This document shows positions 42,505-60,903 of a stretch of DNA of 64,000 nt, in pieces. Numbering within the stretch: the stretch's first letter is position 1; the number at the start of each line of letters is the position of its first letter. The stretch is from an uncultured bacterium. GTDB taxonomy: Bacteria > Omnitrophota > Omnitrophia > Omnitrophales > Abzuiibacteriaceae. The translations under genes were made by a program, and so were the position numbers. A model generated the notes under the pieces. The model had not been told where the DNA came from. It was given only the letters and a program-made list of their open reading frames with translations, and did not search any database. The stretch is from the NCBI GenBank assembly GCA_964387845.1, contig CAYLXA010000003.1, positions 160,001 to 224,000 on the forward strand, in the 5' to 3' direction.

Positions 42505-42505
42505 A

Positions 42506-42769: not shown

Positions 42770-42771
42770 TC

Positions 42772-43887: not shown

Positions 43888-43888
43888 C

Positions 43889-44506
43889 ATGCAGTTTGAT
43901 CTATTTAACCGGACACAGAATCAAATTCTAGACGCAGAATCCTACCCCGAATTTAAAAAGCTCCTAATCGATTCTAAATGCACGAAATGCCAGTTGTGTG
44001 GTGGCCGCAAGAATATTGTTGTCGACCGCGGCAATTCCGATACAAAAATCATGCTGATCGGCGAAGCGCCCGGTGAAAATGAGGATTTGCAGGGGAAGGC
44101 ATTTGTCGGCCGAGCGGGCAGGCTCATGGATCAATTGATGCTTGAAGTTGGCATTGATACCAATCAAGACACACTAATCGCAAACATTGTCAAATGCCGT
44201 CCGCCGGAAAACCGGGCGCCGAAGCAAGACGAAGTGGATCAATGCAAGCCGTTTCTGCTCAAACAAATTCAGCTTGTGAATCCGAAAATCATCGTGCTTT
44301 TGGGCGCAACTGCTCTGAAGCACTTGATTCCTGAGAAAGCCAAAGCGGCGATGAGCTCTGAGGTCGGAAACGCCTTTACGCATCAGGATTTTCCGGGTAT
44401 TCAATTGATGGTTCTTTATCATCCTGCATATATCTTGCGCGATCCGCGCAAAAAGCCGCTCATGCAGGAACATCTCAAAAAATTGAAGCGGTTAATCTCA
44501 AAATAA
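43889..44506 (+). CDS. Uracil-DNA glycosylase, family 4
   Basis: C-x2-C…GEAPG motif (KCTKCQLCGG…LIGEAPGENED) and the HPAYILR C-terminal motif. Confidence 0.8.
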   Translation: MQFDLFNRTQNQILDAESYPEFKKLLIDSKCTKCQLCGGRKNIVVDRGNSDTKIMLIGEAPGENEDLQGKAFVGRAGRLMDQLMLEVGIDTNQDTLIANIVKCRPPENRAPKQDEVDQCKPFLLKQIQLVNPKIIVLLGATALKHLIPEKAKAAMSSEVGNAFTHQDFPGIQLMVLYHPAYILRDPRKKPLMQEHLKKLKRLISK

Positions 44507-44595
44507 ATTTGTCCTAGACGCTTTCATCTTTCGAGGATAAAATTTGAGCCTGTTTTGATCAATCCTCATTTTAATCAGTTAACCGCGAGGTTTTC

Positions 44596-45552
44596 ATGAA
44601 AATTTATTCAGATATCACCAAAACCATCGGCAATACACCGCTTGTGCGCCTAAACCGGGTTACAAAAGGCTGCAGCGCGGAAATTGTTGCCAAATTGGAG
44701 TTTTTCAACCCGATGGCGAGCGTCAAAGACCGGATCGGCGTTAATATGATTGAAGATGCGGAAAAAAAGGGTGTTTTAAAGCCCGGCGCGACCGTGATTG
44801 AACCTACGAGCGGTAATACGGGAATTGCGCTTGCGTTTGTTTGTGCCGCAAAGGGTTATAAATTGATTCTGACAATGCCCGAAACCATGAGCATTGAACG
44901 CAGAATGCTTTTGACGCTTCTCGGTGCGGAAGTTGTACTGACAAAAGGCGAAGAAGGCATGCGCGGCGCGATTAAAAAGGCCGAAGAGTTGGTTGCATCA
45001 ACACCCGGTTCATTTATGCCGCAGCAATTTAAAAATCCCGCCAATGTTGAAATCCACCGGAAATCCACCGCGGAAGAAATCTGGCGCGATACGGACGGTA
45101 AAGTCGATATTTTAATTTCAGGTGTCGGAACCGGCGGAACTATTACAGGCGTTTCTGAAGTCATCAAAACTAAAAAATCGAGCTTTAAAGCCATCGCAGT
45201 TGAACCGAAAGATTCGCCGGTGCTTTCAGGCGGAAAGCCGGGCCCGCATAAAATTCAGGGAATTGGCGCCGGGTTTATTCCGGATATTCTCAATACGAAA
45301 ATTATTGATGAAATTATCCAAGTATCAAATGAAGAGTCGCTTGAATGGGCACGCCGGCTTGCAAAAGAAGAAGGCCTTCTCGTCGGAATTTCTTCGGGCG
45401 CTGCTGTTTCTGCCGCAGTTCAGGTCGGGAAACGGCCCGAAAATAAAGGCAAGTTGATTGTCGTCATCATTCCAAGTTTCGGCGAGCGCTATTTGAGCAC
45501 GGCACTTACGGAAGGCGTTCGTGATATTGCAACCGCACAAGCCGCCCGGTGA
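44596..45552 (+). CDS. cysK: Cysteine synthase A (O-acetylserine sulfhydrylase)
   Basis: [12 protein letters not shown]-terminus, PLP Lys motif (SVKDRIG), GTGGT. Confidence 0.9.
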
Positions 45553-47081
45553 CCGATCGATTTAAATTAGCAGCCGGTTTTGGTTTGTTGGTTGCCGTTT
45601 TACTGCTTTTTTTCTGCCTTTCACGCGACTTCGTATCCGCTTCGGAATCTTCATTCCGGTTAAGCAGCGCTACTTTCTTAATTTTCAGAATCACAATCGC
45701 ACTTTTCTGCATATTTTTGCTCGTCTCACAGAATGTTTCTTTCTCCAAATATATCCCGGGCGCTGTTTTATTTCTTTTTGTGCTGATGTTCTTAGAAAAG
45801 TGGACTCAGCATATGAGCTTCAATACGCATTCCCATGATGTGGGGCTTTTTCACAGCGCGCTCTGGAATTCGTTGCACGGAAATTGGCTGCTTGATTCGG
45901 TACGAGGCCAGTTTTATCTGGCAGACCATTTGATTTTCTTTTTGTATTTTCTCATCCCGTTTTATTGGATTTACTCGGGCCCTGAAACTTTGTATTTTTT
46001 ATCAGCCGTTGCGTTTGCATTTAGTGCATTCTTCATTTTCAAACTTGCAAAAGAGCGCTTGAAGAATGAGCTCGCGGCCTTTTTAATTTTCACCGCTTTT
46101 GCGAGCAACCGTTACATTTGGGGCGCTTTTCTGCATGAATTTCATCCGGATTTTTTTGCGCCGCTGTTTTTGTTTATACTGTTTTTTTCTTTCTATCAGA
46201 AAAAATTTTTCCCGTTCTTTCTGTCGTTTGTCTGCATTTTAATTTTGAAAGAAGATTACGCGCTCTATTTAATCCCGGCTGGAATTTATTTTTTTATCCA
46301 AAAAGAAGGAAAACCGACCGGCCTTGCTGTGATTTTAATCAGCGTGGTTTATTTCGGAGCGGCTTATTTCTGGATACTGCCGCACATGCAGAAAATTTCA
46401 GGGATAACTTCGGGTTACACATACGTTAACTCGTGGTCTCATTTGGGTTCCGGGCCTTTTGATATTGTTAGAAATTTGGTTTTAAATCCGGCGGCTTTTC
46501 TTTCTTCAATTTCTTACAAAACAATCTTTACTTTTTTCACCAAGTTCATTTTCTTGCCCTTTTTAAGCCCCGCAAGCCTTCTATTTCTACTTCCGCCGAT
46601 TTTTTTATATACATCTGCCCAGTTTGAGCTGATCCGAGGCCTGAGCGTGCATTACGGTCTGATTCCGGCGGCGTTTGGATTCATTGCTGTGATTGAGGCT
46701 GTGAGAAATCTGGAGAAGATGAAAATACCGAAAAATCTGACTCCCATTCTGATTTCCATTTTATGTGTTGTCGGTCTTTTCCGATTCACTTTCTTCATCC
46801 CAATGCCGGAGTCGGGAGAGCTTAAAATGCGCCAAGACGGGTTCATGAAAAAAAGGCCGATTTGTGTCCAGTCATCCCTTTTCCCGCATTTAGTTCCTGA
46901 CGGCTCATTTTCCATTTTTCCGGAATGTTCCGCAGGAGATAAATACTTACTTTTATTTGCAAAGGCCGAAACCTACCCGTTTTCAAAACCGGAGTTTCAG
47001 AAACGTTTGTCTGAAATTATTGCAAGCGACAAGTGGCAACTTAAAGAGAATTCCGGCGGAGTCATGCTGTTTGAAAAGTGA
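45549..47081 (+). CDS. DUF2079-like polytopic membrane protein (putative GT-C-type glycosyltransferase)
   Basis: 510 aa with at least 10 TM helices. Early conserved block …[21 protein letters not shown]…. GTG start overlapping the cysK stop. Confidence 0.4.
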
Positions 47082-47149
47082 GTTCGCAATTAAATATATC
47101 TATGATATGATCACTGCTTATAAATAGAGTTTTCAAATCAAGGAAAGTT

Positions 47150-48136
47150 ATGCCTAATTTTTGGAGCAATGCAAAAGTTTTAGTAACGGGCGCGCATGGT
47201 TTTACGGGGTCTCACCTGTGTCATGAGCTTGTGGCACAAGGTGCTCAGGTAAAAGCGTTTGTGAAGAACGGTGGCATGATCGCAAACCTTGCCGATATCC
47301 GCGATAAAATCACGATCTATTCGGGTGACGTTACGGATATTACAAGCCTTTTCACCTCAATGGAGGGCGTCGACTACGTATTTAATGCCGCCGCCATTGT
47401 TCCCGTTATCGAAGCCCGTCAGTCTCCGCAAGCCTGTCTTCAAGTGAATACCATCGGTGCCTACAACGTTGCTTATGCTGCGATGAAATCGGGTATTAAA
47501 AAAATGCTTCACGTAAGCACCTGTCATATTTACGGATTTAGTTCAGCCGACGAGCTTCCGATCAAAGAAACCCTGGTTCCTCGCCCAAGAGACGTTTATG
47601 CAGCATCAAAATATGCCGCAGAGATTTGTTTAAAAACACTGGTTGATGAAGGTTTTCCCATTACTTTTACCCGGGCGTTTGCGATGTATGGCCCCGGCCA
47701 ACGGGAACAGTTGTTTATTCCGAGAGTAATTGCCCATTTGCTTAGAGGAGAAGCGCCCAAGCTTGGCAATTCTCACCCGACACGCGACTACTGCTTTATC
47801 AAAGACACGGTTAGAGGTTATTTACTTGCGCTTGAAAAGGGAAAGCCGGGCGAAGTTTATCATTTGAGTTCCGGGAAAGAAGTTGTCATGAAAGATTTGT
47901 ATGATCTAATTGCAAAGCTATTGGGAAGTAATTTAAAAGCCACCTGGAATATGGATCCTAGGCCGCACGAAATTGACAGGCTTTGCGGAAATTCAGACAA
48001 AGCCCGTTCTGCATTCAACTGGAAGCCCGAAGTGAGTTTTGAAGAGGGCCTTAAAATTACGATTGAATGGTGGAAAAGCCATCCGGAATTATGGAAGCCC
48101 GGTTCCGGCCACCCTGTTGCGCCTTTAGCAAGATAA
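47150..48136 (+). CDS. NAD-dependent sugar-nucleotide epimerase/dehydratase (extended SDR)
   Basis: VLVTGAHGFTGSHL Rossmann motif and YAASKYAAE catalytic YxxxK. Confidence 0.75.
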   Translation: MPNFWSNAKVLVTGAHGFTGSHLCHELVAQGAQVKAFVKNGGMIANLADIRDKITIYSGDVTDITSLFTSMEGVDYVFNAAAIVPVIEARQSPQACLQVNTIGAYNVAYAAMKSGIKKMLHVSTCHIYGFSSADELPIKETLVPRPRDVYAASKYAAEICLKTLVDEGFPITFTRAFAMYGPGQREQLFIPRVIAHLLRGEAPKLGNSHPTRDYCFIKDTVRGYLLALEKGKPGEVYHLSSGKEVVMKDLYDLIAKLLGSNLKATWNMDPRPHEIDRLCGNSDKARSAFNWKPEVSFEEGLKITIEWWKSHPELWKPGSGHPVAPLAR

Positions 48137-48142
48137 AAAATC

Positions 48143-50509
48143 GTGCTTAAAGCAAAAGCCGCGAATGCATCCCATTGTTTTTGGTTTCTTCTAATTGTTC
48201 TTGCCCAGTTTATTTTCTTTGCGTATTGGATCATAACGCAAAGGATGTTCAGTGAGCACGACACATTCCATTTTTTTAGTCTCCAATATTATTATTTAAA
48301 TCATGCCGTGATGTATGGAGCCATTCCGCAATGGATCCCGTTTCTGACACACGGACTGATCGCCAGCCAGTTTTACGCTTTACAATCTGGACTCCTGCAA
48401 AATGTATTCATGCTGATTGCGCCCGTCTTTAAGCCGTTTAATTTTCTCAATATTTTTTACGCCAGCATGTTTATAGACGAATTGTTTCTTCTGGCCGGTT
48501 CGTGGCTTTTGGCAAAACGTTATTTTAAGTCAGTTTACACGGTTTTTTTTGTCTGCATTTCTGTCATCGGGTCAGCAATTTGGGCCTACCAGCCGTGGTT
48601 TAATTTCCGGTTCTATTATGCAATTCCGCTTATTCTTTTCTTTTTTCACACATTCTTAGATACGGGCCGCTGGCGGTATTTTGTTCTTGGCATGAATCTA
48701 ATTGCCATTCAAACGCTAGGCAATTTGTCCTATCTCATTCCGTTTACGACCGCCGCTCTTTTTGTATACTTTCTGTTGCATTTTTTTCTAAATCAGGAAA
48801 CTGTTCTCAAACAATTCAGCCAAATCCGGTTCAATCACTCGTTATGGATTCCGGCTTTTTGGATAGCCGTGTCTTTTACGGCGGTTTATGCAATCTTGGC
48901 TTTCGGCACCGATCAAGTTTTGTATTACGGCCACTTGCGGGCCCGCGACGGCAGTGTTGCATTAGAAAGTTTTATGCATACGAGGCCTGAAATGGGAAGG
49001 TTTAGCTTTTTTGAGTTCATGCTGGGCATTTTGCCTTTTAATGATTACACCATGTATACAGGTTTTATCTCGGCTTTTATGGTTATGTGGGCGCTGGTTA
49101 CTAAGTGGGATAGCCGGAAATCCGCTTTGATCTTGTTTTGTGCTTTCATTTTATTTTTCGCCTACGGCACTTTTGTGAGTATTTTCTTCTACCATGTCTG
49201 GCCCATGATGAAATATTTCCGCCACATTGAATTGACGATGAGTTTTTGTAAGTTGTTTCTTTGCTTTTTAGCAGGGTTTGGCTTTGAGGCGTTTTTTATA
49301 TCTCAAGAACCTTCCGGAAGAATAAAAATCCTTTTCGCTGCACTAGCTTTAATTATTTCCGCAGGTTTTTCTGCCGTCATGGCCAATCCTGATTTGTCCG
49401 GAAAAATATTTTCCTTTTTTAAATTAGACCCCGCTTTTGTTGATTTTTTGTACAGGAAGTATGAAGCAAGAGGCCTTTTGATTTTAGCGGCGGGATTGGC
49501 TTTTTCCGCAGTTTTGCTGATAAGTCTTAAAAAAAAGTTTGCTGCAATTCTGTGGTTTGTATTAATGGTTCATAGTTTGGATCTTTTTTTTTACAAGTGG
49601 CAGTTATTTTATGACGGCAGCACAAAATTGAGCCCAAAACAGTACCAGACGCTGCAATTTACCAAGATTCCCTTTTTTGAAAGCCGGGAAAGTAGTTATA
49701 CGGAAAGAGAGGTTATTTTTGGAGATGAGCCTAGCAAATTTTTTGAGGGAAGCAATGCCAGGTATTGGACACTTTTTACATTTCTTTTTCAAGATAGCTT
49801 TAACAGCGAGCGGCAAACCGATCAGTGGCTGAAGCCGCTCGATCATTTGATAAAGGCTTACCATGGCCAGTCTATTCATGATACAGAAGCTGTGCCTGCT
49901 GACGGATTTAATCAAAGGGAGCACAAACTCATTCTGCCTAATAAACCCTCGCTCCAAAAAATCAGCTCCCTCACCGAAGACAAAATCCAGTTCTTCTCGG
50001 ATGCCCATATCCTGGGTTCTCCGGATGAGGTTGCCGGATTAATGACAGACCCTCAATTTAAGGGAGATCTTCTTTTCTTGAATCAGCCGGGCCATGATCC
50101 TAAACCCTTTAACCGGCCGCTTGATTCCAATGAGCGCCTGAATCTCGACTATGAAGTCACTCATTTTGATTCCAATCAAATCCAAGTCTCAGTCAATATC
50201 CCGGGCAATCAACCCGCCTGGATATTCTACAGCGATGTCTGGCATCCTTTTTGGAAGGTAATAGTCAACGGTAAAACAAAAACAGTCTATAAAGCCGATC
50301 TTGCCTATAAAGCCGCCCCCCTAGAACCCGGGCAAAACAACATACGTTTCTACTTCGAATCCAACTGGATCTCTTTCCTTCATCTCTTCTTTAACCTCCA
50401 TGCCGTCTTCTGGCTCCTCATCCTGTGCCTGCTCATTGCCAAGATCTGTGTGCCGGAGGGGAGGTGGGGCAGGTTAAAAATTTTCGCTTTGATGCTTAAA
50501 GAGATATGA
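48143..50509 (+). CDS. YfhO-like GT-C family membrane glycosyltransferase, paralogue A
   Basis: 788 aa. N-terminal polytopic domain carrying the HDTFHFF…GAIPQWIP motif typical of YfhO-type proteins, then a large extracytoplasmic C-terminal domain and a terminal TM. Its last ~170 aa are identical to paralogue B. Confidence 0.55.
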   Translation: MLKAKAANASHCFWFLLIVLAQFIFFAYWIITQRMFSEHDTFHFFSLQYYYLNHAVMYGAIPQWIPFLTHGLIASQFYALQSGLLQNVFMLIAPVFKPFNFLNIFYASMFIDELFLLAGSWLLAKRYFKSVYTVFFVCISVIGSAIWAYQPWFNFRFYYAIPLILFFFHTFLDTGRWRYFVLGMNLIAIQTLGNLSYLIPFTTAALFVYFLLHFFLNQETVLKQFSQIRFNHSLWIPAFWIAVSFTAVYAILAFGTDQVLYYGHLRARDGSVALESFMHTRPEMGRFSFFEFMLGILPFNDYTMYTGFISAFMVMWALVTKWDSRKSALILFCAFILFFAYGTFVSIFFYHVWPMMKYFRHIELTMSFCKLFLCFLAGFGFEAFFISQEPSGRIKILFAALALIISAGFSAVMANPDLSGKIFSFFKLDPAFVDFLYRKYEARGLLILAAGLAFSAVLLISLKKKFAAILWFVLMVHSLDLFFYKWQLFYDGSTKLSPKQYQTLQFTKIPFFESRESSYTEREVIFGDEPSKFFEGSNARYWTLFTFLFQDSFNSERQTDQWLKPLDHLIKAYHGQSIHDTEAVPADGFNQREHKLILPNKPSLQKISSLTEDKIQFFSDAHILGSPDEVAGLMTDPQFKGDLLFLNQPGHDPKPFNRPLDSNERLNLDYEVTHFDSNQIQVSVNIPGNQPAWIFYSDVWHPFWKVIVNGKTKTVYKADLAYKAAPLEPGQNNIRFYFESNWISFLHLFFNLHAVFWLLILCLLIAKICVPEGRWGRLKIFALMLKEI
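48257..48345 (+). repeat. 89-bp block 100% identical to 53150-53238 (N-terminal region of the YfhO-like paralogues)
   Basis: Direct comparison: cacgacacattccatttttttagtctccaatattattatttaaatcatgccgtgatgtatggagccattccgcaatggatcccgtttct in both copies. Confidence 0.9.
49194..49247 (+). repeat. 54-bp block 100% identical to 54087-54140
   Basis: atgtctggcccatgatgaaatatttccgccacattgaattgacgatgagttttt in both copies; it encodes VWPMMKYFRHIELTMSF. Confidence 0.9.
49955..50464 (+). repeat. 510-bp block 100% identical to 54767-55276 (C-terminal ~170 codons of the YfhO-like paralogues)
   Basis: Verified line by line. Identity begins at caaaaaatcagctccctcaccgaagac and ends at tgtgccggaggggagg. Flanking sequence diverges immediately on both sides. 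Confidence 0.9.
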
Positions 50510-50542
50510 TAAGCTGACATTTAAGATTTTGAATTAGGATTA

Positions 50543-51562
50543 TTGTTCAATCGAAACCAATTCAAAAACCCTATGTTTCAAAACAAAAAAGTACTAGTGA
50601 CCGGCGGCAGCGGGATGATCGGCCGGTTTTTGGTCGATTTTCTCATTGAAAAGGGCGCCAAAGTCAGGGTTGCGTCTCTGGATGATCCGTCGCGCGTACA
50701 TGCCAAAGCAGAATTCCGCCGTGCAAATTTAACGGAATTTAGTGCCTGCCTGGCGGCCTGCGAAGGCATGGATTATGTTTTTCATTTGGCAGGAATCAAG
50801 GGCTCCCCATTAATGGCGGCCAAAAGGCCCGCTAGTTTCTTTGTCCCTATTATTTCATTCAATACCAACATGATGGAAGCGGCGCGTCAGTGCAAAGTCG
50901 AGCGCTATTTGTATACCAGCACTATCGGAGTTTACGCTCCGGCTGAAGTATTCTATGAAGACGATGTATGGAAAGCATTTCCTTCCGAGAATGACAAGTT
51001 TGCGGGATGGGCCAAGCGCATCGGGGAACTTCAGGCCGAAGCCTATAAAATTGAGCACGGCTGGAACGGTGTTCAGATTGTCAGGCCGGCCAACGTGTAC
51101 GGCCCTTATGATAATTTTGACCCCAACAATTCAACTGTCATAGCGTCATTAATTAAACGGGCCGTAGATGGTGAAAATCCGCTTACGGTTTGGGGCGATG
51201 GTTCGCCGATCCGAGATTTTATTCACGCCAAAGACGTTGCCCGCGGCATGCTGATTGTGATGGAAAAAATGCCCGGAAAGCCCGTCAATTTGGGAAGTGG
51301 CGTGGGTGTTACCATTAAACAAATTGTCGAAGTTATCGTGAGCCATTTAAAGAAAAAACCCGAAATTATGTGGGATACGTCAAAGCCGTTGGGCGATAAA
51401 AAGCGCCTGATGGATGTTGCGCGCGCCAAGTCTATCGGTTTTGAACCCGAAATATCGATTGAGCAAGGGATTCATGAACTCATGGATTGGTATCGAGCCA
51501 ATAGGCAGTTACTTGATAAACGGTATAATGTTTTTACTCAAGATAGATTGATGTCAACCTAG
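50543..51562 (+). CDS. GDP-L-fucose synthase-like NAD(P)-dependent epimerase/reductase
   Basis: VLVTGGSGMIGR, YxxxK (YAPAE…), and NVYGPYDNFDPNNSTVIASLIKRA, which resembles the Fcl NLYGPxDNF…HVIPALI block. Confidence 0.6.
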   Translation: MFNRNQFKNPMFQNKKVLVTGGSGMIGRFLVDFLIEKGAKVRVASLDDPSRVHAKAEFRRANLTEFSACLAACEGMDYVFHLAGIKGSPLMAAKRPASFFVPIISFNTNMMEAARQCKVERYLYTSTIGVYAPAEVFYEDDVWKAFPSENDKFAGWAKRIGELQAEAYKIEHGWNGVQIVRPANVYGPYDNFDPNNSTVIASLIKRAVDGENPLTVWGDGSPIRDFIHAKDVARGMLIVMEKMPGKPVNLGSGVGVTIKQIVEVIVSHLKKKPEIMWDTSKPLGDKKRLMDVARAKSIGFEPEISIEQGIHELMDWYRANRQLLDKRYNVFTQDRLMST

Positions 51563-51615
51563 AAAGGCGGCGCTGTATTTCCCAAAATTTTTTAATTACC
51601 GGGATTCGAAGCGGC

Positions 51616-52344
51616 TTGGGCCGATATTTGCACGAAGAACTCAAAGGGCGAGGTATTTCTCGAGAAACGATTGGTGAAGAATTTAATCAAATAATAAAAT
51701 CAGGCGCTCAAACGATTATTCATTGTGCCTTTAACTCGTTTCAGAACGCCGACCCTGCATTAGCAAGCAATCTTCGTAAAGAAAATCTCGTGTTCACAAA
51801 AAAACTGACCCAAATCCCTCATCAAAAGTTTATTTTTATTTCCAGTGTAGATGTTTATCCAAGAAATTCGGAACTGCACAACGAAAATGAAGTTATTCAA
51901 GAGAACCAAGTCGAAGGCGTATACGCCAAAAGCAAATTTGAATGTGAATCAGCCGTTCAAATCGGGTGTAAAAATTATTTAATATTGCGCTCTTCGTCAC
52001 TCCTTGGTAAATATTCGAGACCGAGCAGTTTAATTCGCATATTAAAAGAAGAAAATTGCCGGCTGACATTGTCGCCTGATTCGGATTTAAATTGCGTACT
52101 TTATGAAGATGTTCTCGGATTTTTGCGTCTTTCAGTCAAAGAAAGTCTGAAGGGAGTTTATAACACCGTGTCATCGGGAAATATTTTGGTGTCTGATGCT
52201 GCGAAATTATTAAAGAAAAAAGTAGAGTTTGGAAATTATAGTTATCAGGTCGGAAACGTCGATAATCGTAAAGCTTCATTGATATATCCGGCATTTAAGA
52301 AGACATCAGAGCAAATATTCAAACAATTTTCTAGACAAATATGA
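51616..52344 (+). CDS. NAD-dependent epimerase/reductase (RmlD-like); start uncertain
   Basis: YAKSK catalytic motif. The Rossmann motif ITGIRSGLG is encoded in frame upstream (51589-51630) of the called TTG start, with no ATG/GTG after the in-frame stop at 51544. Confidence 0.5.
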   Translation: MGRYLHEELKGRGISRETIGEEFNQIIKSGAQTIIHCAFNSFQNADPALASNLRKENLVFTKKLTQIPHQKFIFISSVDVYPRNSELHNENEVIQENQVEGVYAKSKFECESAVQIGCKNYLILRSSSLLGKYSRPSSLIRILKEENCRLTLSPDSDLNCVLYEDVLGFLRLSVKESLKGVYNTVSSGNILVSDAAKLLKKKVEFGNYSYQVGNVDNRKASLIYPAFKKTSEQIFKQFSRQI

Positions 52345-53012
52345 AGACAACTTTATTAGTTCCTACTCTGAACGAAATTGAAGGCATGAAAATCATCATG
52401 CCAAGAATTGACCCTAAGTGGGTTGATGAAATTTTAGTAATCGACGGCGGCTCTACGGACGGAACCATTGAATATGCGAAGGAGCACGGCTATCGGCTGA
52501 TACATCAAAAATCAAAAGGAATCACATTGGCCTATAAAGAAGCTTTGGATCAAATTTCAAACGATGTTGTCATTGCGTTCAGCCCTGACGGCAACTCAGT
52601 TCCTGAAATAATTCCGGATTTGATACGGGCCATGAAAGAAGGATACGACATGGTGATCGTTTCTCGCTATTTAAAAGGAGCTGGTAGTGAAGATGACGAC
52701 CCCGTTACCGCATTTGGGAATTGGATGTTTACCGCGATCATCAATCTGGTTTTTGGAGGGCATTATACCGATACGCTCGTGATGTTCCGGGCTTTTAAGA
52801 CGAGCGTTGTTAAATCGTTTCCGACCAATGTGCCGCGCGCAGGCCTTGAACCCATGCTTTCCATCCGGTGCGCTAAGCATAAACTCAAAGTTTCTGAAAT
52901 TCCGGGTAAAGAACCAAAGCGAATCGGCGGAATCCGAAAAATGGTCCCTATTTTGAATGGGCTCGATATTGTAAAGCTCATCGTCCAAGAGAGACTTTCA
53001 CCGAATTCTTAA
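52341..53012 (+). CDS. GT2-family glycosyltransferase (polyprenyl-phosphate sugar synthase, DPM1/GtrB/CsbB-like)
   Basis: …LVPTLNE…ILVIDGGSTDGT… and DxD-like …AFSPDGNS… of GT-A fold; 223 aa. Confidence 0.75.
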   Translation: MKTTLLVPTLNEIEGMKIIMPRIDPKWVDEILVIDGGSTDGTIEYAKEHGYRLIHQKSKGITLAYKEALDQISNDVVIAFSPDGNSVPEIIPDLIRAMKEGYDMVIVSRYLKGAGSEDDDPVTAFGNWMFTAIINLVFGGHYTDTLVMFRAFKTSVVKSFPTNVPRAGLEPMLSIRCAKHKLKVSEIPGKEPKRIGGIRKMVPILNGLDIVKLIVQERLSPNS

Positions 53013-53035
53013 GCCTTCCTTTATTAGAGGTTAGC

Positions 53036-55309
53036 TTGGAAAAGATAAAAAAATTTTTTAATCTAGAATTCCGTTTATTTTTTCTGCTAGTTTCAATTCA
53101 AGCCGCTTTTTTTTTGACGTTAATTCTGCAAAAAAGGCTCCCAAATTCACACGACACATTCCATTTTTTTAGTCTCCAATATTATTATTTAAATCATGCC
53201 GTGATGTATGGAGCCATTCCGCAATGGATCCCGTTTCTCACGCACGGATTGATTGCAAACGGATTTTATGCGCTGCAATGCGGGTTTCTACAGAACGTGC
53301 TTATGGCGGCTGCGCCGTTTTTGAGCAAAATCAATTTCTTGCCCGTATTTTATGCGGGCATGTTTGTCGATGAGCTTCTGCTGGTTGTTGGTACTTGGCT
53401 GCTTGCCAAAAGATTTTTTTCATCTTTATCGACCGTTTTTTTTGTTTGCATCTCGGTCGTCGGCTCCTCCGTTTGGGTAACCCAACCGTGGTTTAATTTT
53501 CGGTTTCTTTATACGGTTCCGCTTATGATTTATTTTTTTCATCTGTTTCTTGAATCTGCCAAATGGCGGTATTTTTTCCTAGGATTTGGCTTAATGGCCT
53601 TTCAAACGCTCGGCAATTTGGCGTATTCGATTCCGTTTACCAGTGTTTTTATTTTCATGTACTTTTTATTTTATACAGCTTTAAATTTCAGAAACGTACT
53701 GGCTCAAGCCAAACAAATAAAATTTAATTTTTCGTTGCTGATTCCGGCTTTGTGGGTGATTGCACTATTCGTGCTCTGTTACAGCATTCTTTCATTCGGA
53801 ACGGATGAGGTAATGCATTACGGTTTTAACAGGAATCGAGACGGCACTGTCAGCCTCGGTGATTTTTTGGATGCAAGCCCACTTTTGGCCAGGCTCAGTC
53901 CCGATGAGCTTCTGTTTGGTGCGCTTCCGTCAATTGATTACTCGCTATATGCAGGAGTGGCGGCAGTTTATTTTGCGATAGCGGGCGCTATTGCAAACAG
54001 AAGTAGAAATAAAATCGTATTTGTTTTATTGGCCATTTTTATCATGCTCTTTTCTCAGGGAGCTTTTGTCAGCATGTTTTTTTATTATGTCTGGCCCATG
54101 ATGAAATATTTCCGCCACATTGAATTGACGATGAGTTTTTTCAGGCTATCCATGTGCTTTTTAGCGGGTTTTGGCTTCGAGTGGCTCTTGGTTCACAAGA
54201 CGGAAACAGGGAGGGCACATGTTTTTATAGCGTCGGTTTGCTTTATCGCATCATTAGGATATTTTATTTTGGGCTATGGTGAAAATAGCAACGGTTTTTT
54301 AATATTGATAATCGGAACTTTATTTTCATTTTTTCTTTTATTTGACAGAAAGAAGTGGCATGGAGTTACTGTTGTACTTTTATTAATGCTCCATAGCGTT
54401 GATATATTTGCATATAAATGGACCGAGTTTGAAAAGAAAAGTTTTTTACTCAATGAGCAACAGTATGAAATTCTAAAATTTTCAAAGATCCCGTTTGTTA
54501 GTAAAAGAGACCAAGGATATTCGGGTCGAGAACCTATTTTGGGCGATTTGCTTCAGTTCGTGATTCGCGGAGGGAATTATTGGACGATTTATGCATTTCT
54601 TTTCAAAGATGACTTCGATAGCTATTTACAGACCCATCAATGGATGCTACCTCTCGACCAGTATTTAAGGGCCTATGCCGGGGTTTCTATATATGATCGT
54701 CAATCGGTGCCAATACCTACGTTTCGCATCAACCGCGCTTTGGTATTTCCAAGAAGTTCTTCTTTGCAAAAAATCAGCTCCCTCACCGAAGACAAAATCC
54801 AGTTCTTCTCGGATGCCCATATCCTGGGTTCTCCGGATGAGGTTGCCGGATTAATGACAGACCCTCAATTTAAGGGAGATCTTCTTTTCTTGAATCAGCC
54901 GGGCCATGATCCTAAACCCTTTAACCGGCCGCTTGATTCCAATGAGCGCCTGAATCTCGACTATGAAGTCACTCATTTTGATTCCAATCAAATCCAAGTC
55001 TCAGTCAATATCCCGGGCAATCAACCCGCCTGGATATTCTACAGCGATGTCTGGCATCCTTTTTGGAAGGTAATAGTCAACGGTAAAACAAAAACAGTCT
55101 ATAAAGCCGATCTTGCCTATAAAGCCGCCCCCCTAGAACCCGGGCAAAACAACATACGTTTCTACTTCGAATCCAACTGGATCTCTTTCCTTCATCTCTT
55201 CTTTAACCTCCATGCCGTCTTCTGGCTCCTCATCCTGTGCCTGCTCATTGCCAAGATCTGTGTGCCGGAGGGGAGGCAGCGCGGCGTGAAGATATATGAA
55301 TTAATTTAG
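53036..55309 (+). CDS. YfhO-like GT-C family membrane glycosyltransferase, paralogue B
   Basis: 757 aa with the same architecture as paralogue A, to which it is roughly 35-65% identical over most of its length. Three segments (89, 54 and 510 bp) are 100% nucleotide-identical to A. Confidence 0.55.
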   Translation: MEKIKKFFNLEFRLFFLLVSIQAAFFLTLILQKRLPNSHDTFHFFSLQYYYLNHAVMYGAIPQWIPFLTHGLIANGFYALQCGFLQNVLMAAAPFLSKINFLPVFYAGMFVDELLLVVGTWLLAKRFFSSLSTVFFVCISVVGSSVWVTQPWFNFRFLYTVPLMIYFFHLFLESAKWRYFFLGFGLMAFQTLGNLAYSIPFTSVFIFMYFLFYTALNFRNVLAQAKQIKFNFSLLIPALWVIALFVLCYSILSFGTDEVMHYGFNRNRDGTVSLGDFLDASPLLARLSPDELLFGALPSIDYSLYAGVAAVYFAIAGAIANRSRNKIVFVLLAIFIMLFSQGAFVSMFFYYVWPMMKYFRHIELTMSFFRLSMCFLAGFGFEWLLVHKTETGRAHVFIASVCFIASLGYFILGYGENSNGFLILIIGTLFSFFLLFDRKKWHGVTVVLLLMLHSVDIFAYKWTEFEKKSFLLNEQQYEILKFSKIPFVSKRDQGYSGREPILGDLLQFVIRGGNYWTIYAFLFKDDFDSYLQTHQWMLPLDQYLRAYAGVSIYDRQSVPIPTFRINRALVFPRSSSLQKISSLTEDKIQFFSDAHILGSPDEVAGLMTDPQFKGDLLFLNQPGHDPKPFNRPLDSNERLNLDYEVTHFDSNQIQVSVNIPGNQPAWIFYSDVWHPFWKVIVNGKTKTVYKADLAYKAAPLEPGQNNIRFYFESNWISFLHLFFNLHAVFWLLILCLLIAKICVPEGRQRGVKIYELI
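54767..55276 (+). repeat. Second copy of the 510-bp identical block
   Basis: See 49955-50464. Confidence 0.9.
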
Positions 55310-56287
55310 AGGAAGTTTTATGATGCTGGCTGAAATTAGCGGCTCACCGATTTCAATTTCGGTTCCAACCTGAAGATAATCACTTGCAACGAAACCAAGC
55401 GCAAGCGGCTTTGAAAGCGCAGGCGAAAACACGGCGCTTGTGATCCGGCCGATTTCCTTTCCCGATTTTTGAATTTTATCTCCCAAATTAGGGATTTTGT
55501 CTCCGGCCACAATAATTCCGGTTAACTGTTTTGCAAATTTTCCGCGGCTGTCGATTCGCGCGACAATTTCCTGGCCCGGGTAGCAGCCTTTTGTAAAGCT
55601 CACAGCTTTTGGCTCGATTAGTTTCACTTCCGGCAAGATAATGTCTTCAGTCAGGTCAATTCCATACCGCGGCGTTCCGGATTCAACGCGTAAAATCTGA
55701 ATAATTTCAGATTCAATTTGCGAGATGCCCAGCGGCTGCGCAGCGCTTTTGATTTTTTCGAGTGCTTTGCTTTTTTCTTGGCTCGGAATCACAATGCACC
55801 AAGTTTTAAATCCGAAAAGGGAGATACAGAAAATCCGGCAGTCAAAATCTTTTGCTTTTGACGGCCCGTGCGAAAAAATCTCCTTCGGGTAATCACTATT
55901 AAAAAGCGTTTTAACGGCATCTTCAGCTTTCGGGCCCAAAATCGCCAAGATCGAAAGCTCTTTAGATTGATTGGTAAATGTTACATCGTCGGTAACCGTA
56001 AATTTTTCTAGAACGCCAATGACTTTCTCGGTAATCGAAGATTCCATAGCAAGCCACGTTCTTTCATTTTCAACAAACACATTCATGTCGGCGATGATTT
56101 TAGCCTGAGCATTCAACAGGCAAGCATAACAGCCGCTTCCGGATTTTATGTTTTTGATATCATTTGTGAGCATCCGGTGAAGAAATGAAACGGCATCTTT
56201 TCCGTTCACTTCGATTAAGGCCCGGTTTGAAAGATCAATGATTGCGCCGTTAGATTTTGCGGATTTGTATTGATCCATGTTTTTCAT
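55301..56287 (-). CDS. ygfZ: YgfZ-family folate-binding protein (GcvT-like, Fe-S cluster repair/tRNA modification)
   Basis: KGCYPGQE signature near the C-terminus and a GcvT-like fold; 328 aa. Confidence 0.75.
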   Translation of the reverse strand: MKNMDQYKSAKSNGAIIDLSNRALIEVNGKDAVSFLHRMLTNDIKNIKSGSGCYACLLNAQAKIIADMNVFVENERTWLAMESSITEKVIGVLEKFTVTDDVTFTNQSKELSILAILGPKAEDAVKTLFNSDYPKEIFSHGPSKAKDFDCRIFCISLFGFKTWCIVIPSQEKSKALEKIKSAAQPLGISQIESEIIQILRVESGTPRYGIDLTEDIILPEVKLIEPKAVSFTKGCYPGQEIVARIDSRGKFAKQLTGIIVAGDKIPNLGDKIQKSGKEIGRITSAVFSPALSKPLALGFVASDYLQVGTEIEIGEPLISASIIKLPLN

Positions 56288-58449
56288 ATTTTTGTCGTCA
56301 AGCGGGTTCCGATCCAGAATAAAGCCAGTGATGCCAACACACCAAAAAGAATCTGGAGATTTGTAAAAGGTTCATAATCCATCGAAACATGCCGGTCTCC
56401 CGGTTTTACTTTGATGCGCATCAAGCGGTCTTCTTTTGCATAAATACCCCTCTCTTTCCCGTTGACGAGCGCTTTCCAGCCTTTTAAATCAATAAACGTT
56501 GCAACCAACTCTTCTTCCCGTTGAATGGAAGGCAGCTTCACCTTTAGGCCGTTGCCTTTTATTTGAATCGACGCAGGATCGAGCCAGGACCTGACGTTCC
56601 CATTTTGGAGATAAACAATACTAACCGGTTCCGGATTTTCAAAAAGCAAGAGAATGGATTGCTGGCCGGCAACGCGCCAGTTATTTTCCATCAATTCCCG
56701 GCGCGGCCCCGTCAAAATGTATTTAATTCCGAGGCGGTTCACTTTTTCCTGGTCCCAGGGCCCCACAAAATGATAAGCAAGCGGCGTCAGGTCAACTTCG
56801 ATCATTTTTTCTTTCATCAGAAAATCCGCGAAACGCTTGTTTACCAAAATGCTGCGCCCCGCGCTGCCAAGAACATATTTTTCGGCAGCCCGTAAATCGT
56901 GCCCATGCGCGGTGACAATTTCGGCAGCAAGGCGTGAATTAGGCGTCATTGCGTCGAGAAATTTTTCAGGCAGAAATTTTGATTCCCAGCTGTTTGAGTA
57001 ATGATGAATAGGAAAAGGGCCCGGGTCTTTGCTGACGCAGCATTCGGACCAATCTTCGAGATTCAAAATATTGGCTGCTATGGTTACCTTTGACCAAATC
57101 AGCGACAGGCCCAGCAGCCCGCAAAAAATCAGGCCGATGTTTGATCGGGCTTGTTTGCCGGAATCTATTTTTGAAGCCAAACAATAAATTGCGTACAAAA
57201 TAACAAAAGCCAAGAAAAAGAAAACGGGAAATTTATATTTCCACTCAATTTGATGCCAATCGAGCCAAAAAACTGATGCGAGAAGAACCGCCGCAAGAAT
57301 AGCTAAGGAAACCGCCAAAAACTTTTTCGAAAAGGCATTTTTTGAAATTTTATCCAGCGCGATTCCGGCCGGAACGGCAAAAAAAACGCTCGAAATCCAC
57401 CAAATTCGCGTGGCATCGGTGGATTTAAGAAGCGGGGCGGATAAGTAAAAGTCTTTGAAACGCAAAAGGAGAAAGACAAAAATGACAGGCCCAATTCCTA
57501 AGATCAGAAACCGGACAGGAAAATAAATATTCTTTTTGAAATCATTCTTAAAACTCCAAACAAGCCCGATTAAGGATAAGGTGACAAGCGGCAGTGAAAA
57601 ATAAATCGCGGAATCCATGTGATGGCGCCATGGTTTTTGCTGGCCGATCAGGCCCGATAAAAGCCGCTTAAAAGTGTAATCCGGAGCCAAATATTTTTGG
57701 CCGACGCGCGCGCTTTCTTTTACATGTTCAAAAAAGTTCATAAAATCTGCGTAATAAAATAAAAATCCTGCCGCGATCACGATCAAAGTCAAAATCATTT
57801 TTTTGTCAAACCTGGCTCGGGACAAAAAGAGTTGGTTCAACACGATAAAAGGGATCATCAAAAAAACAAGATTGGTGCTTGTGCTTAAAGTTGCGGTCAC
57901 CATAGCCGCATAAAACAAGAAAAGGTACTTCGCGTTAGGTTTGTCATTGAAGCGCTCTTGAAATATCAAAATTGCTATAAAACATAAAAGCGACAATTGA
58001 TAGTAATGGTGTGCGAAATGCCATAAAAATCCGGGCGAAAAAAAGGTGACGACTGCGCAAATAGCGGCAATTCCGGCCGGCATATATTTTTTCAAATAAA
58101 AAATAAGCGCAAACACCGTCAAAAACGCAATCGCAGCCCGATTTATTGTCATGGCTACCGGATTCGGAAAAAAATAATAGGTAAGGGCGTGGGGCGAAAA
58201 CGGATAAGTGGTTGCATCGCCTAAAATAGGTGTTCCGAAATTGTGGTACAAGTTCATCATCGGAATTTGGCCGTCGCGCATGATCGAACGGGCTATGAAA
58301 AGATTGGGAAACGTGTGATTGGCGTCGTCTGCCTTGTCGAATGCGGCACAATCGGTAAAAAAGAAAACTTTGATGATCACGAACAAAGCAATCGCCAGAG
58401 GAACAAACCCGTACACAATTTGTTTCTTAAAGCTAAACGGCATGAGCAT
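56284..58449 (-). CDS. YfhO-like GT-C family membrane glycosyltransferase, divergent paralogue C
   Basis: 721 aa. N-terminal …ANHTFPNLFIARSIMRDGQIPMMN… parallels the HDTFHFF…GAIPQW block of A and B. The C-terminal domain parallels …W..L/VVNGK……KA…, followed by a terminal TM. It overlaps ygfZ (ATGA) downstream and mutY upstream. Confidence 0.5.
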   Translation of the reverse strand: MLMPFSFKKQIVYGFVPLAIALFVIIKVFFFTDCAAFDKADDANHTFPNLFIARSIMRDGQIPMMNLYHNFGTPILGDATTYPFSPHALTYYFFPNPVAMTINRAAIAFLTVFALIFYLKKYMPAGIAAICAVVTFFSPGFLWHFAHHYYQLSLLCFIAILIFQERFNDKPNAKYLFLFYAAMVTATLSTSTNLVFLMIPFIVLNQLFLSRARFDKKMILTLIVIAAGFLFYYADFMNFFEHVKESARVGQKYLAPDYTFKRLLSGLIGQQKPWRHHMDSAIYFSLPLVTLSLIGLVWSFKNDFKKNIYFPVRFLILGIGPVIFVFLLLRFKDFYLSAPLLKSTDATRIWWISSVFFAVPAGIALDKISKNAFSKKFLAVSLAILAAVLLASVFWLDWHQIEWKYKFPVFFFLAFVILYAIYCLASKIDSGKQARSNIGLIFCGLLGLSLIWSKVTIAANILNLEDWSECCVSKDPGPFPIHHYSNSWESKFLPEKFLDAMTPNSRLAAEIVTAHGHDLRAAEKYVLGSAGRSILVNKRFADFLMKEKMIEVDLTPLAYHFVGPWDQEKVNRLGIKYILTGPRRELMENNWRVAGQQSILLLFENPEPVSIVYLQNGNVRSWLDPASIQIKGNGLKVKLPSIQREEELVATFIDLKGWKALVNGKERGIYAKEDRLMRIKVKPGDRHVSMDYEPFTNLQILFGVLASLALFWIGTRLTTKI

Positions 58450-59539
58450 ATTGTTCGAAGGTTGTTTTCAATAGACTTTGGTAAGGGACCGGAAAAGAAA
58501 GCTTCGTGATTCCGGAACGTGAAACCCAGCGGCTTCCGGAATTAACATGGCCTTGATTCGTTTTGAAAACAAACGGCGAAATTGTCATCTTCAAATGTGT
58601 TAAGTGATGCGTAATCGGTTCGATTGAAGCTATGGGCGCGGCTTTCATTTTGTATTCATTATGAATGTAGCGTTCGATTAATTCACGGAACGAATTTTTA
58701 ACCGGCGAAGTGATGCTTGGCACTTCCCAAAGCCCGCCCCAAATGCCTTTCGCCGGCCGTTTCCGGACCAAAATTTTTCCGTCATTCAAGATAAAAGCAG
58801 CCGCAATCCGGACTTCTTTTTTCTGCAGAGCCTTGGATTTGATCGGCAATGATTCCTGATTTCCTTTTTTATATGCGGAACAAACCGAAGAAACCGGACA
58901 AGCCGTGCAATTGGGCATCGCCGGAATGCAAATCAAGGAACCAAGTTCCATGAGCGCTTGATTAAAATCTCCAGGTGATTTTTCAGGAACCAACTGTCCG
59001 GCAATTTCGTATAAAAATTTCTGCGTTTCGGGTTTTAAAATATCCTTTTTGATATTAAAAAGCCGGGAAAGAACGCGCGCCACATTTCCATCGACAAGCG
59101 GCACGCGCTTTTCGAATCCGATGCTGGCGATGGCGCCTGCCGTGTAGCGTCCGATTCCCGGAAGCGCGAAGAGAGAATCAAAATCACTCGGAATTTTTCC
59201 GCCGTGTTTTTCACAAATCATTTGCGCCGCTTTATGCAGATTTCGCGCGCGCGTGTAATAACCAAGCCCCTCCCAAAGTTTTAAAACCTTATCGATCGGC
59301 GCTGCGGCGAGTGATTCGATATCGGGAAACACTTTCATCCAGCGTTCGAAATAGGGAATCACGGTCTTGATCTGAGTTTGCTGAAGCATGACCTCAGAGA
59401 TGAATGTTCGGTAAGGGCTTTTTTGGGAGCGCCAGGGCATGGGACGCTTATTTTTGGAAAACCAGGCAAGCAGGTTTTTTTGAATCTTTACCTGTACATT
59501 TCCCGAAACTTTCGAATTCATAGAGCTAGAATTTATCAT
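58433..59539 (-). CDS. mutY: A/G-specific adenine DNA glycosylase MutY
   Basis: HhH-GPD (…LPGIGRYTAGAIASI…), a 4Fe-4S cysteine cluster (C-x6-C-x2-C-x5-C), and a C-terminal NUDIX-like domain. Confidence 0.85.
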   Translation of the reverse strand: MINSSSMNSKVSGNVQVKIQKNLLAWFSKNKRPMPWRSQKSPYRTFISEVMLQQTQIKTVIPYFERWMKVFPDIESLAAAPIDKVLKLWEGLGYYTRARNLHKAAQMICEKHGGKIPSDFDSLFALPGIGRYTAGAIASIGFEKRVPLVDGNVARVLSRLFNIKKDILKPETQKFLYEIAGQLVPEKSPGDFNQALMELGSLICIPAMPNCTACPVSSVCSAYKKGNQESLPIKSKALQKKEVRIAAAFILNDGKILVRKRPAKGIWGGLWEVPSITSPVKNSFRELIERYIHNEYKMKAAPIASIEPITHHLTHLKMTISPFVFKTNQGHVNSGSRWVSRSGITKLSFPVPYQSLLKTTFEQYAHAV

Positions 59540-59553
59540 ATAATGTTGGGCTT

Positions 59554-60900
59554 ATGAATCATAATTTAGAAAAGCTGGATAAGAAACATATCTGGCATCC
59601 TTTCACGCAAATGCGCGATTGGGAGCGTGACGACATTCTTGTTATCGAGTCCGGCAAGGGATGTTTCCTGCGCGATACGAAGGGCAGGCGCTACATTGAC
59701 GGCGTTTCATCGCTTTGGTGCAATGTGCACGGCCACCGGGTTCCCGAAATTGACCGCGCAGTCAAAAAACAGCTCGGAAAAATTGCACATTCGACTTTTT
59801 TGGGGCTTTCGAATGTTCCCGCCGTTTTGCTGGCGCAAAAATTAGTCAAAATCGCGCCCAAAGGGCTTTCACGCGTTTTTTATTCGGATTCCGGCTCCGA
59901 ATCGGTCGAAATCGCGGTCAAAATGGCGTTTCAATATTGGCAAAACCTTGGCGAAAAGAAGAAAACCAAATTTATCCGGCTCACAAACGCTTACCACGGC
60001 GATACGCTCGGCTCCGTGTCGGTTGGCGGCATTCAATTGTTCCACGATATTTATCACTCGCTTACTTTTAAAACGATTTCAGTTCCGGCACCGTACCGGT
60101 ATCGCGACTCATTTTCCGGCACCGAATCCGAGTACGCCAAATTTTGCGCAGATCGGCTGGAGAAAATTATTCAGAAGCATGCCCGTGAAACGGCAGCGCT
60201 CATCATCGAACCTTTGATGCAGGGAGCTGCCGGAATGATCAATCAACCCCGCGGATTCATTTCGCGTGCAAGACAGCTGACAAAAAAGTATAATGTGCTG
60301 CTCATTTTTGACGAGGTGGCAACGGGTCTTGGGCGGACCGGAAAATGGTTTGCGGCGGATCATGAAAGAGTTTCGCCGGACATTTTGTGCATCGCGAAAG
60401 GTTTGACGGGCGGTTATTTGCCTCTTGCTGTAACTCTAGCAACAGAAAATATTTACAACGCTTTTAAGGCCGATTACGCTGCCCTCAAAACGTTCTTTCA
60501 TGGCCATACTTATACGGCGAATCAGCTGGCTTCAGCCGCGGCACTTGCCAATCTCGCAGTTTTTGATAAAAATAAGACGCTCACGAAGCTCAATTCCAAG
60601 TTAAAGTTCTTATCTAAAAGGCTTGAATCATTTTGGAAGCTCCGGCATGTCGGCGATATCCGCCAGACTGGTTTTATGGCCGGCATTGAACTTGTCCGAG
60701 ACCGGATGACGAAAGAACCGTACGATTGGAAGGAAAAAATCGGGATCCGGGTCATTGAGGAAGCGCGTAAGCATGGCGTCATCATCCGGCCGCTTGGAAA
60801 TGTGATCGTGCTGATGCCGCCGCTTGCGATCGAAATGAAAACGCTCGAAAAATTGTTGAATGTAGTTTATAGGTCAATTCAGAAAGTAACGGAACGTTAA
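59554..60900 (+). CDS. bioA: Adenosylmethionine-8-amino-7-oxononanoate aminotransferase
   Basis: Class III aminotransferase with a BioA-like N-terminus (HIWHPFTQM) and PLP Lys region (…DILCIAKGLTGGYLPLA…). Confidence 0.85.
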   Translation: MNHNLEKLDKKHIWHPFTQMRDWERDDILVIESGKGCFLRDTKGRRYIDGVSSLWCNVHGHRVPEIDRAVKKQLGKIAHSTFLGLSNVPAVLLAQKLVKIAPKGLSRVFYSDSGSESVEIAVKMAFQYWQNLGEKKKTKFIRLTNAYHGDTLGSVSVGGIQLFHDIYHSLTFKTISVPAPYRYRDSFSGTESEYAKFCADRLEKIIQKHARETAALIIEPLMQGAAGMINQPRGFISRARQLTKKYNVLLIFDEVATGLGRTGKWFAADHERVSPDILCIAKGLTGGYLPLAVTLATENIYNAFKADYAALKTFFHGHTYTANQLASAAALANLAVFDKNKTLTKLNSKLKFLSKRLESFWKLRHVGDIRQTGFMAGIELVRDRMTKEPYDWKEKIGIRVIEEARKHGVIIRPLGNVIVLMPPLAIEMKTLEKLLNVVYRSIQKVTER

Positions 60901-60903
60901 ATT

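Follow-up and report, generated by a model that had tools for sequence, protein, structure and literature searches.

The window analysed here is a 64,000-nucleotide (nt) stretch of DNA from an uncultured bacterium of the Omnitrophota (contig CAYLXA010000003.1, positions 160,001 to 224,000), and it carries on its forward strand two tandem genes, 4.8 kb apart, for large membrane proteins predicted to be glycosyltransferases of the GT-C fold: g1 (48143-50509, 788 amino acids (aa) from a GTG start) and g2 (53036-55309, 757 aa from a TTG start, database protein P0004). Three segments of these otherwise strongly diverged genes are identical to the last nucleotide, and we consider recent gene conversion within one genome, between anciently diverged tandem paralogues, to be their origin with a probability of roughly 70%. 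The same process had been proposed in an initial annotation of this DNA and is supported by the exact blocks, the synonymous saturation of their flanks, the incongruent phylogeny of the largest block and the recurrence of similar patches in other tandem arrays.

The first block, B1 (89 nt, aa 39-68, HDTFHFFSLQYYYLNHAVMYGAIPQWIPFL), occupies 48257-48345 in g1 and 53150-53238 in g2, the second, B2 (54 nt, aa 351-368, VWPMMKYFRHIELTMSF), occupies 49194-49247 and 54087-54140, and the third, B3 (510 nt, aa 605-774), occupies 49955-50464 and 54767-55276, all on the forward strand. Each pair is 100% identical at exactly the coordinates first reported, and the very next base to the left and to the right of every block already differs. 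The edges are as abrupt as had been described: to the right of B1 the amino acids are still the same (THGLIA) while the synonymous sites already differ, and at the left edge of B3 the flanks of the two genes cannot be aligned at all. B1 to B3 are the sole long repeats within the window. Outside the blocks the two proteins are about 45% identical, with 29% at the N-terminus, 52% in the interval from B1 to B2 (mid1, aa 69-350) and 40% in that from B2 to B3 (mid2, aa 369-604), which makes the earlier figure of 35-65% a fair one. A codon alignment of g1 and g2 contains 748 differences over 2271 aligned nt, and after the runs of 510, 89 and 54 identical nt the next longest are of 14, 12 and 12. When the differences were permuted 10,000 times in a GENECONV-type test, as had been suggested for this pair, the top three runs reached at most 46, 25 and 21 nt.

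Synonymous divergence between the genes outside the blocks is saturated, and the synonymous substitution rate is undefined by the Nei-Gojobori method (NG86). Where both proteins have the same degenerate residue the same codon is used at 61 of 140 positions in mid1 and 34 of 82 in mid2, as against 27 of 28 in B1, 13 of 13 in B2 and 164 of 164 in B3. In comparison with the orthologues of related genomes, third-position identity is 37-47% for B1, 67-72% for B2 and 36-41% for B3, and the overall nucleotide identity of B1 and B2 to these orthologues is 76-87%, versus 100% between g1 and g2. The longest exact run among 338 inter-genome pairs of family genes (45-75% nucleotide identity) is 33 nt, and tandem pairs from the same genome in five other arrays (L006, L019, L020, L042/L043 and L044/L045) have exact runs of no more than 32 nt; since several same-genome pairs stay this low, the common codon usage of one genome is insufficient as an explanation. 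B2, with its modest length and its many Trp and Met codons, is statistically the weakest of the three and yet exceeds every control including the 33-nt maximum. Scans against Rfam and for promoters and terminators found nothing special in the blocks and no Rfam element. Chance, codon bias and protein constraint cannot account for the identity of the blocks.

Neighbor-joining trees with bootstrap were calculated for the variable segments and for B3; B1 and B2 are too short for this purpose. The relatives of most use were two loci, L001 with two GT-C genes (L1_a and L1_b) and L002 with one (L2); g1, which is of the a-type, is orthologous to the single gene of L002 and to the first gene of L001, and g2 is of a separate type. 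In the variable segments g1, L1_a and L2 form a clade with bootstrap values of 100% and 99%, with g2 and L1_b outside it. In the B3 tree the identical g1 and g2 sequences instead group with L2 at 96% bootstrap and L1_a leaves the clade. This incongruence between B3 and its flanks is the pattern expected from conversion, and we would tentatively read the direction of the B3 event as g1 to g2. No clear orthologue of g2 was found, the gene being equidistant from L1_a, L1_b and L2, and the short tails after B3 are uninformative on direction, as the convergent GCV_T gene extends into the final codons of g2. The paralogues of L001 are likewise closer to each other in the C-terminal domain (distance 0.54) than elsewhere (0.61 and 1.06). 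As a separate observation, the single gene of L002 (10001-12367 of that locus, P0002) is of a-type in its variable parts, whereas its C-terminal domain is no further from the L001 b-type (59% identity) than from any other sequence and is only 52% identical to L1_a; deletion between two tandem copies could have left this gene as a hybrid.

Tandem arrays of 2-5 genes of this family are common, and we examined 13 of them including the window, counting L042/L043 and L044/L045 once each. Identity patches of 56-196 nt, above the inter-genome maximum of 33 nt, were present in six of the 12 other arrays. The longest are in L008, with exact runs of 196 nt (aa 98-163) and 180 nt (aa 709-768), followed by a run of 67 nt at YSDVWHPFWKATVNGK in the L001 pair, one of 59 nt at the WPMMKYFRH motif in L005, one of 58 nt in L012 and one of 56 nt in L041, again at the WPMMKYFRH motif. 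The patches in these five arrays, which belong to independent MAGs (metagenome-assembled genomes), lie above every permutation wherever tested. L007, with runs of up to 68 nt, falls within the same range of lengths and was rejected as not significant, its pair being 84% identical overall, and a 34-nt run in L015 is borderline. The patches cluster at conserved motifs and at the C-terminus.

Some of these arrays have peculiarities of their own. In L005, from a Smithella-like MAG, the second GT-C copy (4958-7425) is split into overlapping open reading frames (ORFs) at 4958-6488 and 6462-7425, which suggests a frameshifted pseudogene or a sequencing error in the tandem array. L042/L043 and L044/L045 are three-gene GT-C arrays amid many B12-binding radical-SAM genes (PF02310 with PF04055), and in both cases the 7.4-kb array was recovered without any difference from two independent assemblies or samples.

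With a view to locating the blocks in the protein we used an AlphaFold2 model built from 49 homologues (predicted local distance difference test score (pLDDT) 89.6, predicted template modelling score 0.91). Roughly 13 membrane helices occupy the model as far as aa 492; they are followed by a soluble domain (493-740), beta-rich from around position 615 onward, and by a terminal helix (741-769). B1 is the start of the first loop after the first transmembrane (TM) helix and includes the near-invariant D40, which is conserved in at least 90% of the 49 homologues, lies just after helix 7-31 and may have a catalytic role in a loop that would be extracytoplasmic. B2 is the WPMMKYFRH motif, the most conserved of the family, with invariant W353, P354, M356, R360 and H361. 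B1 and B2 coincide with the two loop motifs of highest conservation. B3 would correspond to the beta-rich C-terminal part of the soluble domain (strands at 615-738) together with the terminal TM helix. Counting of helices and the positive-inside rule would place all three blocks in the periplasm. Divergence between g1 and g2 falls for the most part in TM helices and in the N-terminal half of the soluble domain. It had been suggested that a variable outer domain, presumably for acceptor recognition, changes between fixed anchors, and this idea is unsupported: the longest of the identical blocks is an outer domain, and the variable parts are mainly TM helices. A more natural reading would be that of a common acceptor-side module joined to membrane and donor parts that have diverged. 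A review speculates that large GT-C enzymes bind the acceptor polymer through their outer domains (PMC8035078). If real, the exchange suggests that the C-terminal periplasmic domain of either enzyme could functionally stand in for that of the other and serves a common acceptor-side function, in which case differences in specificity would lie in the membrane part.

On this basis we propose that very recent, non-reciprocal homologous recombination copied three segments from one paralogue onto the other. Two short tracts would have been centred on the two most conserved motifs, the Asp loop of B1 and the WPMMKYFRH motif of B2, and the 510-nt tract would have replaced a whole module, that is the C-terminal periplasmic beta-domain and the last TM helix. 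Initiation or resolution of the exchange may have relied on short stretches of identity at the conserved motifs, and selection may have kept only tracts that respect module boundaries. The g1 and g2 enzymes would thus have one acceptor-side module in common and differ in the membrane part; they may also differ in their lipid-linked sugar donor because g2 has its own epimerase, its own gene resembling a short-chain dehydrogenase/reductase (SDR) and its own family 2 glycosyltransferase (GT2).

Several points weigh against conversion. The main difficulty is that flanking homology is lacking at several edges, above all at the left edge of B3, and because no g1/g2 run of more than 14 identical nt remains outside the blocks the start and resolution of an exchange of RecA type are hard to explain. 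Three separate perfect tracts need either several very recent events or one complex event with multiple switches. The direction depends on L2, the only orthologue present as a single copy, and L2 may be a hybrid too. The sole long-read array examined, L006, is without patches, and the positive arrays other than the window are all on contigs with short-read-like names. The full locus is present in one assembly only, the database proteins for g1 (P0001) and g2 (P0004) being found each on one NCBI contig, and slightly different B3 copies could have received a single consensus from the assembler.

The alternative that survives best, although we regard it as unlikely, reverses the order of events: a recent duplication, or an insertion of Campbell type or by unequal crossover anchored in B3, would have come first and the variable parts would have been imported afterwards, leaving the blocks as leftovers. 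The imports, anchored on the conserved blocks and coming from other strains or species, would comprise the N-terminus, mid1 and mid2 together with the 2.5-kb insert between g1 and g2 (epimerase, gene X and GT2). Such a history would fit the comparison with the relatives. L002 has the same backbone with a NUDIX gene, a single GT-C gene and no g3, a third and more distant GT-C-like gene, and L001 has the same backbone with NUDIX, two GT-C genes and g3. The segment from DUF2079 to GCV_T (window 45549-58449) therefore differs in gene content, with NUDIX or epimerase, one or two GT-C genes, and presence or absence of the epimerase/X/GT2 insert and of g3. In identity to L001 and L002, moreover, the membrane proteins DUF2079, g1 and g3 are at 60-66% against 73-95% for the flanking housekeeping proteins, because of which we regard the locus as fast-evolving and variable in content. 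A 4.3-kb segment lies between the 510-nt direct repeats, which is what integration or unequal exchange at B3 would leave behind, g2 is the copy without a clear orthologue, and gene X has an aberrant GC content at third codon positions (GC3) of 0.321 versus 0.505 +/- 0.046 for the genes of the window, about four standard deviations below, and may be a decaying or foreign gene. A foreign origin of g2 itself was considered and has no compositional signal; its GC3 of 0.450 is close to the 0.475 of g1, its composition is like that of g1 and the genome, and gene X alone deviates. The reversed order would call for no fewer recombination events than conversion does, again between sequences that are equally diverged, and a single crossover at B3 gives identical copies only if the B3 sequences of donor and recipient were already identical. 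Nor is there any sign of shuffling, g1 being of a-type throughout mid1 and mid2 and g2 of its own type throughout. Arrays without an insert between their genes show the same kind of patches.

A highly improbable alternative is that the blocks are an assembly artefact, a collapsed or chimeric repeat produced by bubble popping or strain mixing, with the true genes diverged or merely similar at these positions. A 510-nt exact repeat exceeds typical reads and a de Bruijn assembler cannot separate its copies, and to this are added the points on consensus, the single assembly and the short-read contigs given above. We checked an independent assembly, the Logan contigs of run SRR15237813, in which three flanking proteins of the locus are also present and for which we take the k-mer length to be 31. 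Three of these contigs reproduce 22.6 kb around the locus without a mismatch. The first, L040, corresponds to window 37150-48286 (11.1 kb of a 33.9-kb contig) and ends 30 nt inside the first copy of B1; the second, L039, corresponds to 50435-53179, starting at the last 30 nt of the first copy of B3 and ending 30 nt inside the second copy of B1; and the third, L046, corresponds to 55247-64000 (an 8754-nt overlap of a 12.8-kb contig) and starts at the last 30 nt of the second copy of B3. As the contigs break at 48286, 50435, 53179 and 55247, exactly 30 nt (k-1) inside the blocks, the read graph branches at these block edges, whose sequences are truly common to two contexts in the reads. The four outer junctions between unique and repeated sequence (upstream to B1, B3 to insert, insert to B1 and B3 to downstream) thus have read-level, k-mer support. 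The tandem arrangement is forced by the topology of the graph, since the sequence leaving the first copy of B3 passes through the insert back into B1. B1 and B2 are shorter than one read, g1 is of a-type on both sides of B2, which speaks against a paralogue switch there, and the 33.9-kb contig speaks for low strain heterogeneity. Sequences of 50-60% identity have no collapsible k-mers, so the copies must be at least near-identical: the two copies of B3 are either strictly identical or near-identical and collapsed, and either way are far more alike than their flanks. The chimera explanation, which the initial annotation had named as its main alternative, is accordingly weakened by contigs that agree at 100% and break k-1 inside the blocks, and it keeps a small residual probability.

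Programmed variation using the blocks as recombination sites, whether by a shufflon or other site-specific system, by donation of the pilE/pilS type or by a diversity-generating retroelement, has only a very slight chance of being correct. The blocks are in-register direct repeats inside surface-glycan genes and the 510-nt repeats would permit RecA-mediated deletion or amplification of a 4.8-kb unit; against this, no recombinase, integrase, transposase or reverse transcriptase lies within about 10 kb on either side, where the neighbours are syntenic housekeeping genes, no inverted repeats link g1 and g2, and both genes are full-length ORFs with no silent cassettes. With zero mismatches in the blocks there is no pattern of adenine-specific mutagenesis, and the Rfam result given above is negative here too. 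Finally, nucleotide-level purifying selection for some DNA or RNA element that both genes contain, or else a very strong codon bias at conserved residues, has a negligible probability and is effectively refuted by the orthologue comparison: B1 and B2 do coincide with the most conserved protein motifs and Trp and Met codons do abound in B2, yet synonymous sites within these blocks vary among orthologues and among other same-genome paralogues, the codons of B3 agree completely where about 43% agree elsewhere, Rfam gives no match and the positions of the patches vary from array to array.

Recent conversion between g1 and g2 has its closest parallel in the release-factor genes RF1 and RF2, where domain-sized conversion between ancient bacterial paralogues has been described (Ishikawa et al. 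2015, PMC4530459). There, and on our reading here, a whole domain of common function is overwritten and the specificity-determining parts stay diverged. Conversions between RF1 and RF2 recur, and in both directions in different lineages. The release-factor genes differ in being unlinked and their conversions are old and phylogenetically inferred, whereas g1 and g2 are in tandem and have two short motif tracts in addition, and their tracts, being nucleotide-perfect, would be very recent. Concerted evolution, of which tufA/tufB and the rRNA operons are examples, offers a second comparison. For duplicated bacterial genes in general it has been surveyed (PMC6053082). The likeness is that paralogues within one genome are closer to each other than to their orthologues through recombination between copies; the difference is that such pairs are homogenised over their full length and are more than 95% identical, whereas g1 and g2 are homogenised in patches within synonymous-saturated genes.

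Gene conversion also yields mosaic paralogues of surface proteins, as in babA/babB of Helicobacter pylori, opa and pil of Neisseria and the antigen loci of M. tuberculosis. These systems resemble g1/g2 in that recombination between paralogues in genes related to the cell surface gives rise to chimeric alleles. They encode adhesins and antigens under immune selection in pathogens, often with silent donors, in contrast to g1 and g2, which are intact genes for putative enzymes of glycan modification in an uncultured environmental lineage. Among tandem GT-C paralogues a comparison can be made with embC-embA-embB, the arabinosyltransferase genes of mycobacteria. Each of their products likewise has a C-terminal periplasmic domain of carbohydrate-binding type, but there is no sequence relationship beyond the fold, and we know of no report of perfect conversion tracts between emb genes.

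In terms of predicted function the nearest systems are those of multi-component transmembrane glycosylation, CsbB/GtcA/YfhO and relatives (Rismondo et al. 2018, PMC5836110; reviewed in PMC8035078). In these as at the present locus a GT-A (GT2) enzyme, here predicted to make a polyprenyl-phosphate sugar, stands beside a large, multi-spanning GT-C protein with an extracytoplasmic C-terminal domain, and several GT-A/GT-C pairs are possible per genome. Unlike the members of those systems, g1 and g2 fall short of the YfhO Pfam model, and in their family 2-5 GT-C genes may stand in tandem, in several loci immediately after a single GT2. Teichoic acid would not be expected as the acceptor because the hosts, judging from the names Omnitrophota and Desulfobacterota, appear to be of Gram-negative type.

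The description of the genes as YfhO-like holds at the level of the family and fails for g1 and g2 themselves. Neither has a Pfam or NCBIfam match even at E=10, and a family profile search gave no PDB sequence match. Weak matches to PF09586 (YfhO) at E<=0.01 were found in 30 of 49 homologues (best E 1.1e-7; gathering score 28.5 bits), and some family members carry precomputed weak matches. The predicted architecture, in which some 13 TM helices precede a large C-terminal domain outside the cytoplasm and one last TM helix, fits that of YfhO (PMC8035078). The model contains a multi-spanning N-terminal membrane module with the GT-C fold, and its fold matches include structures 7bvf, 6x0o and 7bve. 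Sequence comparison thus points to a family related to YfhO but separate from it and without a model of its own in current libraries. At E<=1e-30 it comprises at least 933 clusters (50% identity), and members also occur in MAGs of Desulfobacterota type. Some members are of about 1000-1160 aa, and P0057 carries ankyrin repeats. The deposited g1 protein, P0001, has 754 aa and starts at a Met 34 codons downstream of the GTG at 48143 (window 48143-48244). The longer ORF encodes a helix at aa 7-31 that is modelled with a pLDDT of more than 95 and lines up with the N-terminal helix in homologues, because of which the deposited start is probably too short and removes the first TM helix.

If real, the case of g1 and g2 provides a clear-cut instance from nature of gene conversion on the scale of a domain between synonymous-saturated paralogues. 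It is no new kind of mechanism; gene conversion is well known, and to our knowledge none has previously been described for the YfhO-related GT-C family. Almost nothing is known of this family or of the phylum Omnitrophota, and the analysis flags a sizeable group outside Pfam and NCBIfam that often occurs as tandem arrays behind a single GT2. In the other arrays there is an unproven hint of recurrent module homogenisation in this unstudied family. A wider proposal, which we consider rather doubtful, is that recombination at motifs and at the C-terminal boundary is a recurrent, selectively maintained re-assortment of modules among tandem GT-C paralogues of Omnitrophota and Desulfobacterota. The arrays would then be a combinatorial toolkit with a common acceptor domain and differing membrane and donor parts, and the 510-nt repeats would allow reversible deletion or amplification of the 4.8-kb unit and hence glycan variation at the level of the population. 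There is also a practical side: repeats of this kind fragment short-read assemblies, and pipelines for orthology and annotation can be misled by them.

The surroundings suggest a surface-glycan locus of an Omnitrophota-like bacterium. The MnmA protein of the window is 59-69% identical to proteins named Candidatus Omnitrophica or Omnitrophota. The genes run in the order PALP, DUF2079, epimerase, g1, epimerase, SDR-like gene X, GT2 and g2, followed on the reverse strand by GCV_T, g3 and MutY. The predicted DUF2079 membrane protein (45549-47081, forward; Pfam PF09852, E 8e-42) flanks the variable locus and recurs beside family members elsewhere. Directly upstream of g1 is a first NAD-dependent sugar epimerase/dehydratase (47150-48136, forward; PF01370, E 8.9e-47; PF16363, E 2.1e-46), which sits where the relatives have the NUDIX gene, and a second (50543-51562, forward; PF01370, E 2.1e-47) opens the insert between g1 and g2. 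Next comes gene X (51616-52344, forward), an SDR/RmlD-like gene of 242 aa whose Pfam match begins at profile position 55 and leaves the N-terminal Rossmann part unmatched.

The last gene of the insert, directly upstream of g2, encodes a GT2 similar to polyprenyl-phosphate sugar synthases (AglJ, dolichyl-phosphate (Dol-P) hexose transferase or ArnC-like; 52341-53012, forward; PF00535, E 1.7e-14). Its NCBIfam matches, TIGR04182 (E 3.6e-31) and NF041391 (E 7.2e-24), are both under the equivalog cut-offs. A GT2 resembling Dol-P or undecaprenyl-phosphate hexose synthases also stands directly upstream, within about 100 nt, of the arrays in L005, L007 and L008, and there is a nearby GT2 in L019, L030 and L037. 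This proximity hints indirectly at a lipid-phosphate-linked sugar donor for the putative GT-C enzymes. No flippase of GtrA/GtcA type was noticed among the large ORFs of the locus, for which no dedicated search was made.

Beyond g2 and the GCV_T gene lies g3 (56284-58449, reverse), which encodes a distant relative of 721 aa that is about 20% identical to g1 and g2 and has a weak C-terminal match to PF09586 (E 1.4e-4, under the gathering score). It is present in L001 at 60% identity and absent in L002, and it has no identity block in common with g1 or g2. With g1, g2, g3 and DUF2079 there are four large membrane proteins of probable or possible GT-C type within 13 kb. Scans of contigs for closer relatives of the locus gave none beyond L001 and L002, which are about 60% identical (the best among genomes was 41%, and the best among metagenomes was the contig of L001 itself). 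At some distance upstream a 51-nt direct repeat of 71% identity (window 39346-39396 and 40679-40729) lies on either side of the MTHFR gene (39740-40624), inside two reverse-strand ORFs of 122 aa (about 39276-39644 and 40621-40989) without a Pfam match. These two ORFs resemble small paralogues and are also present in L001 and L002.

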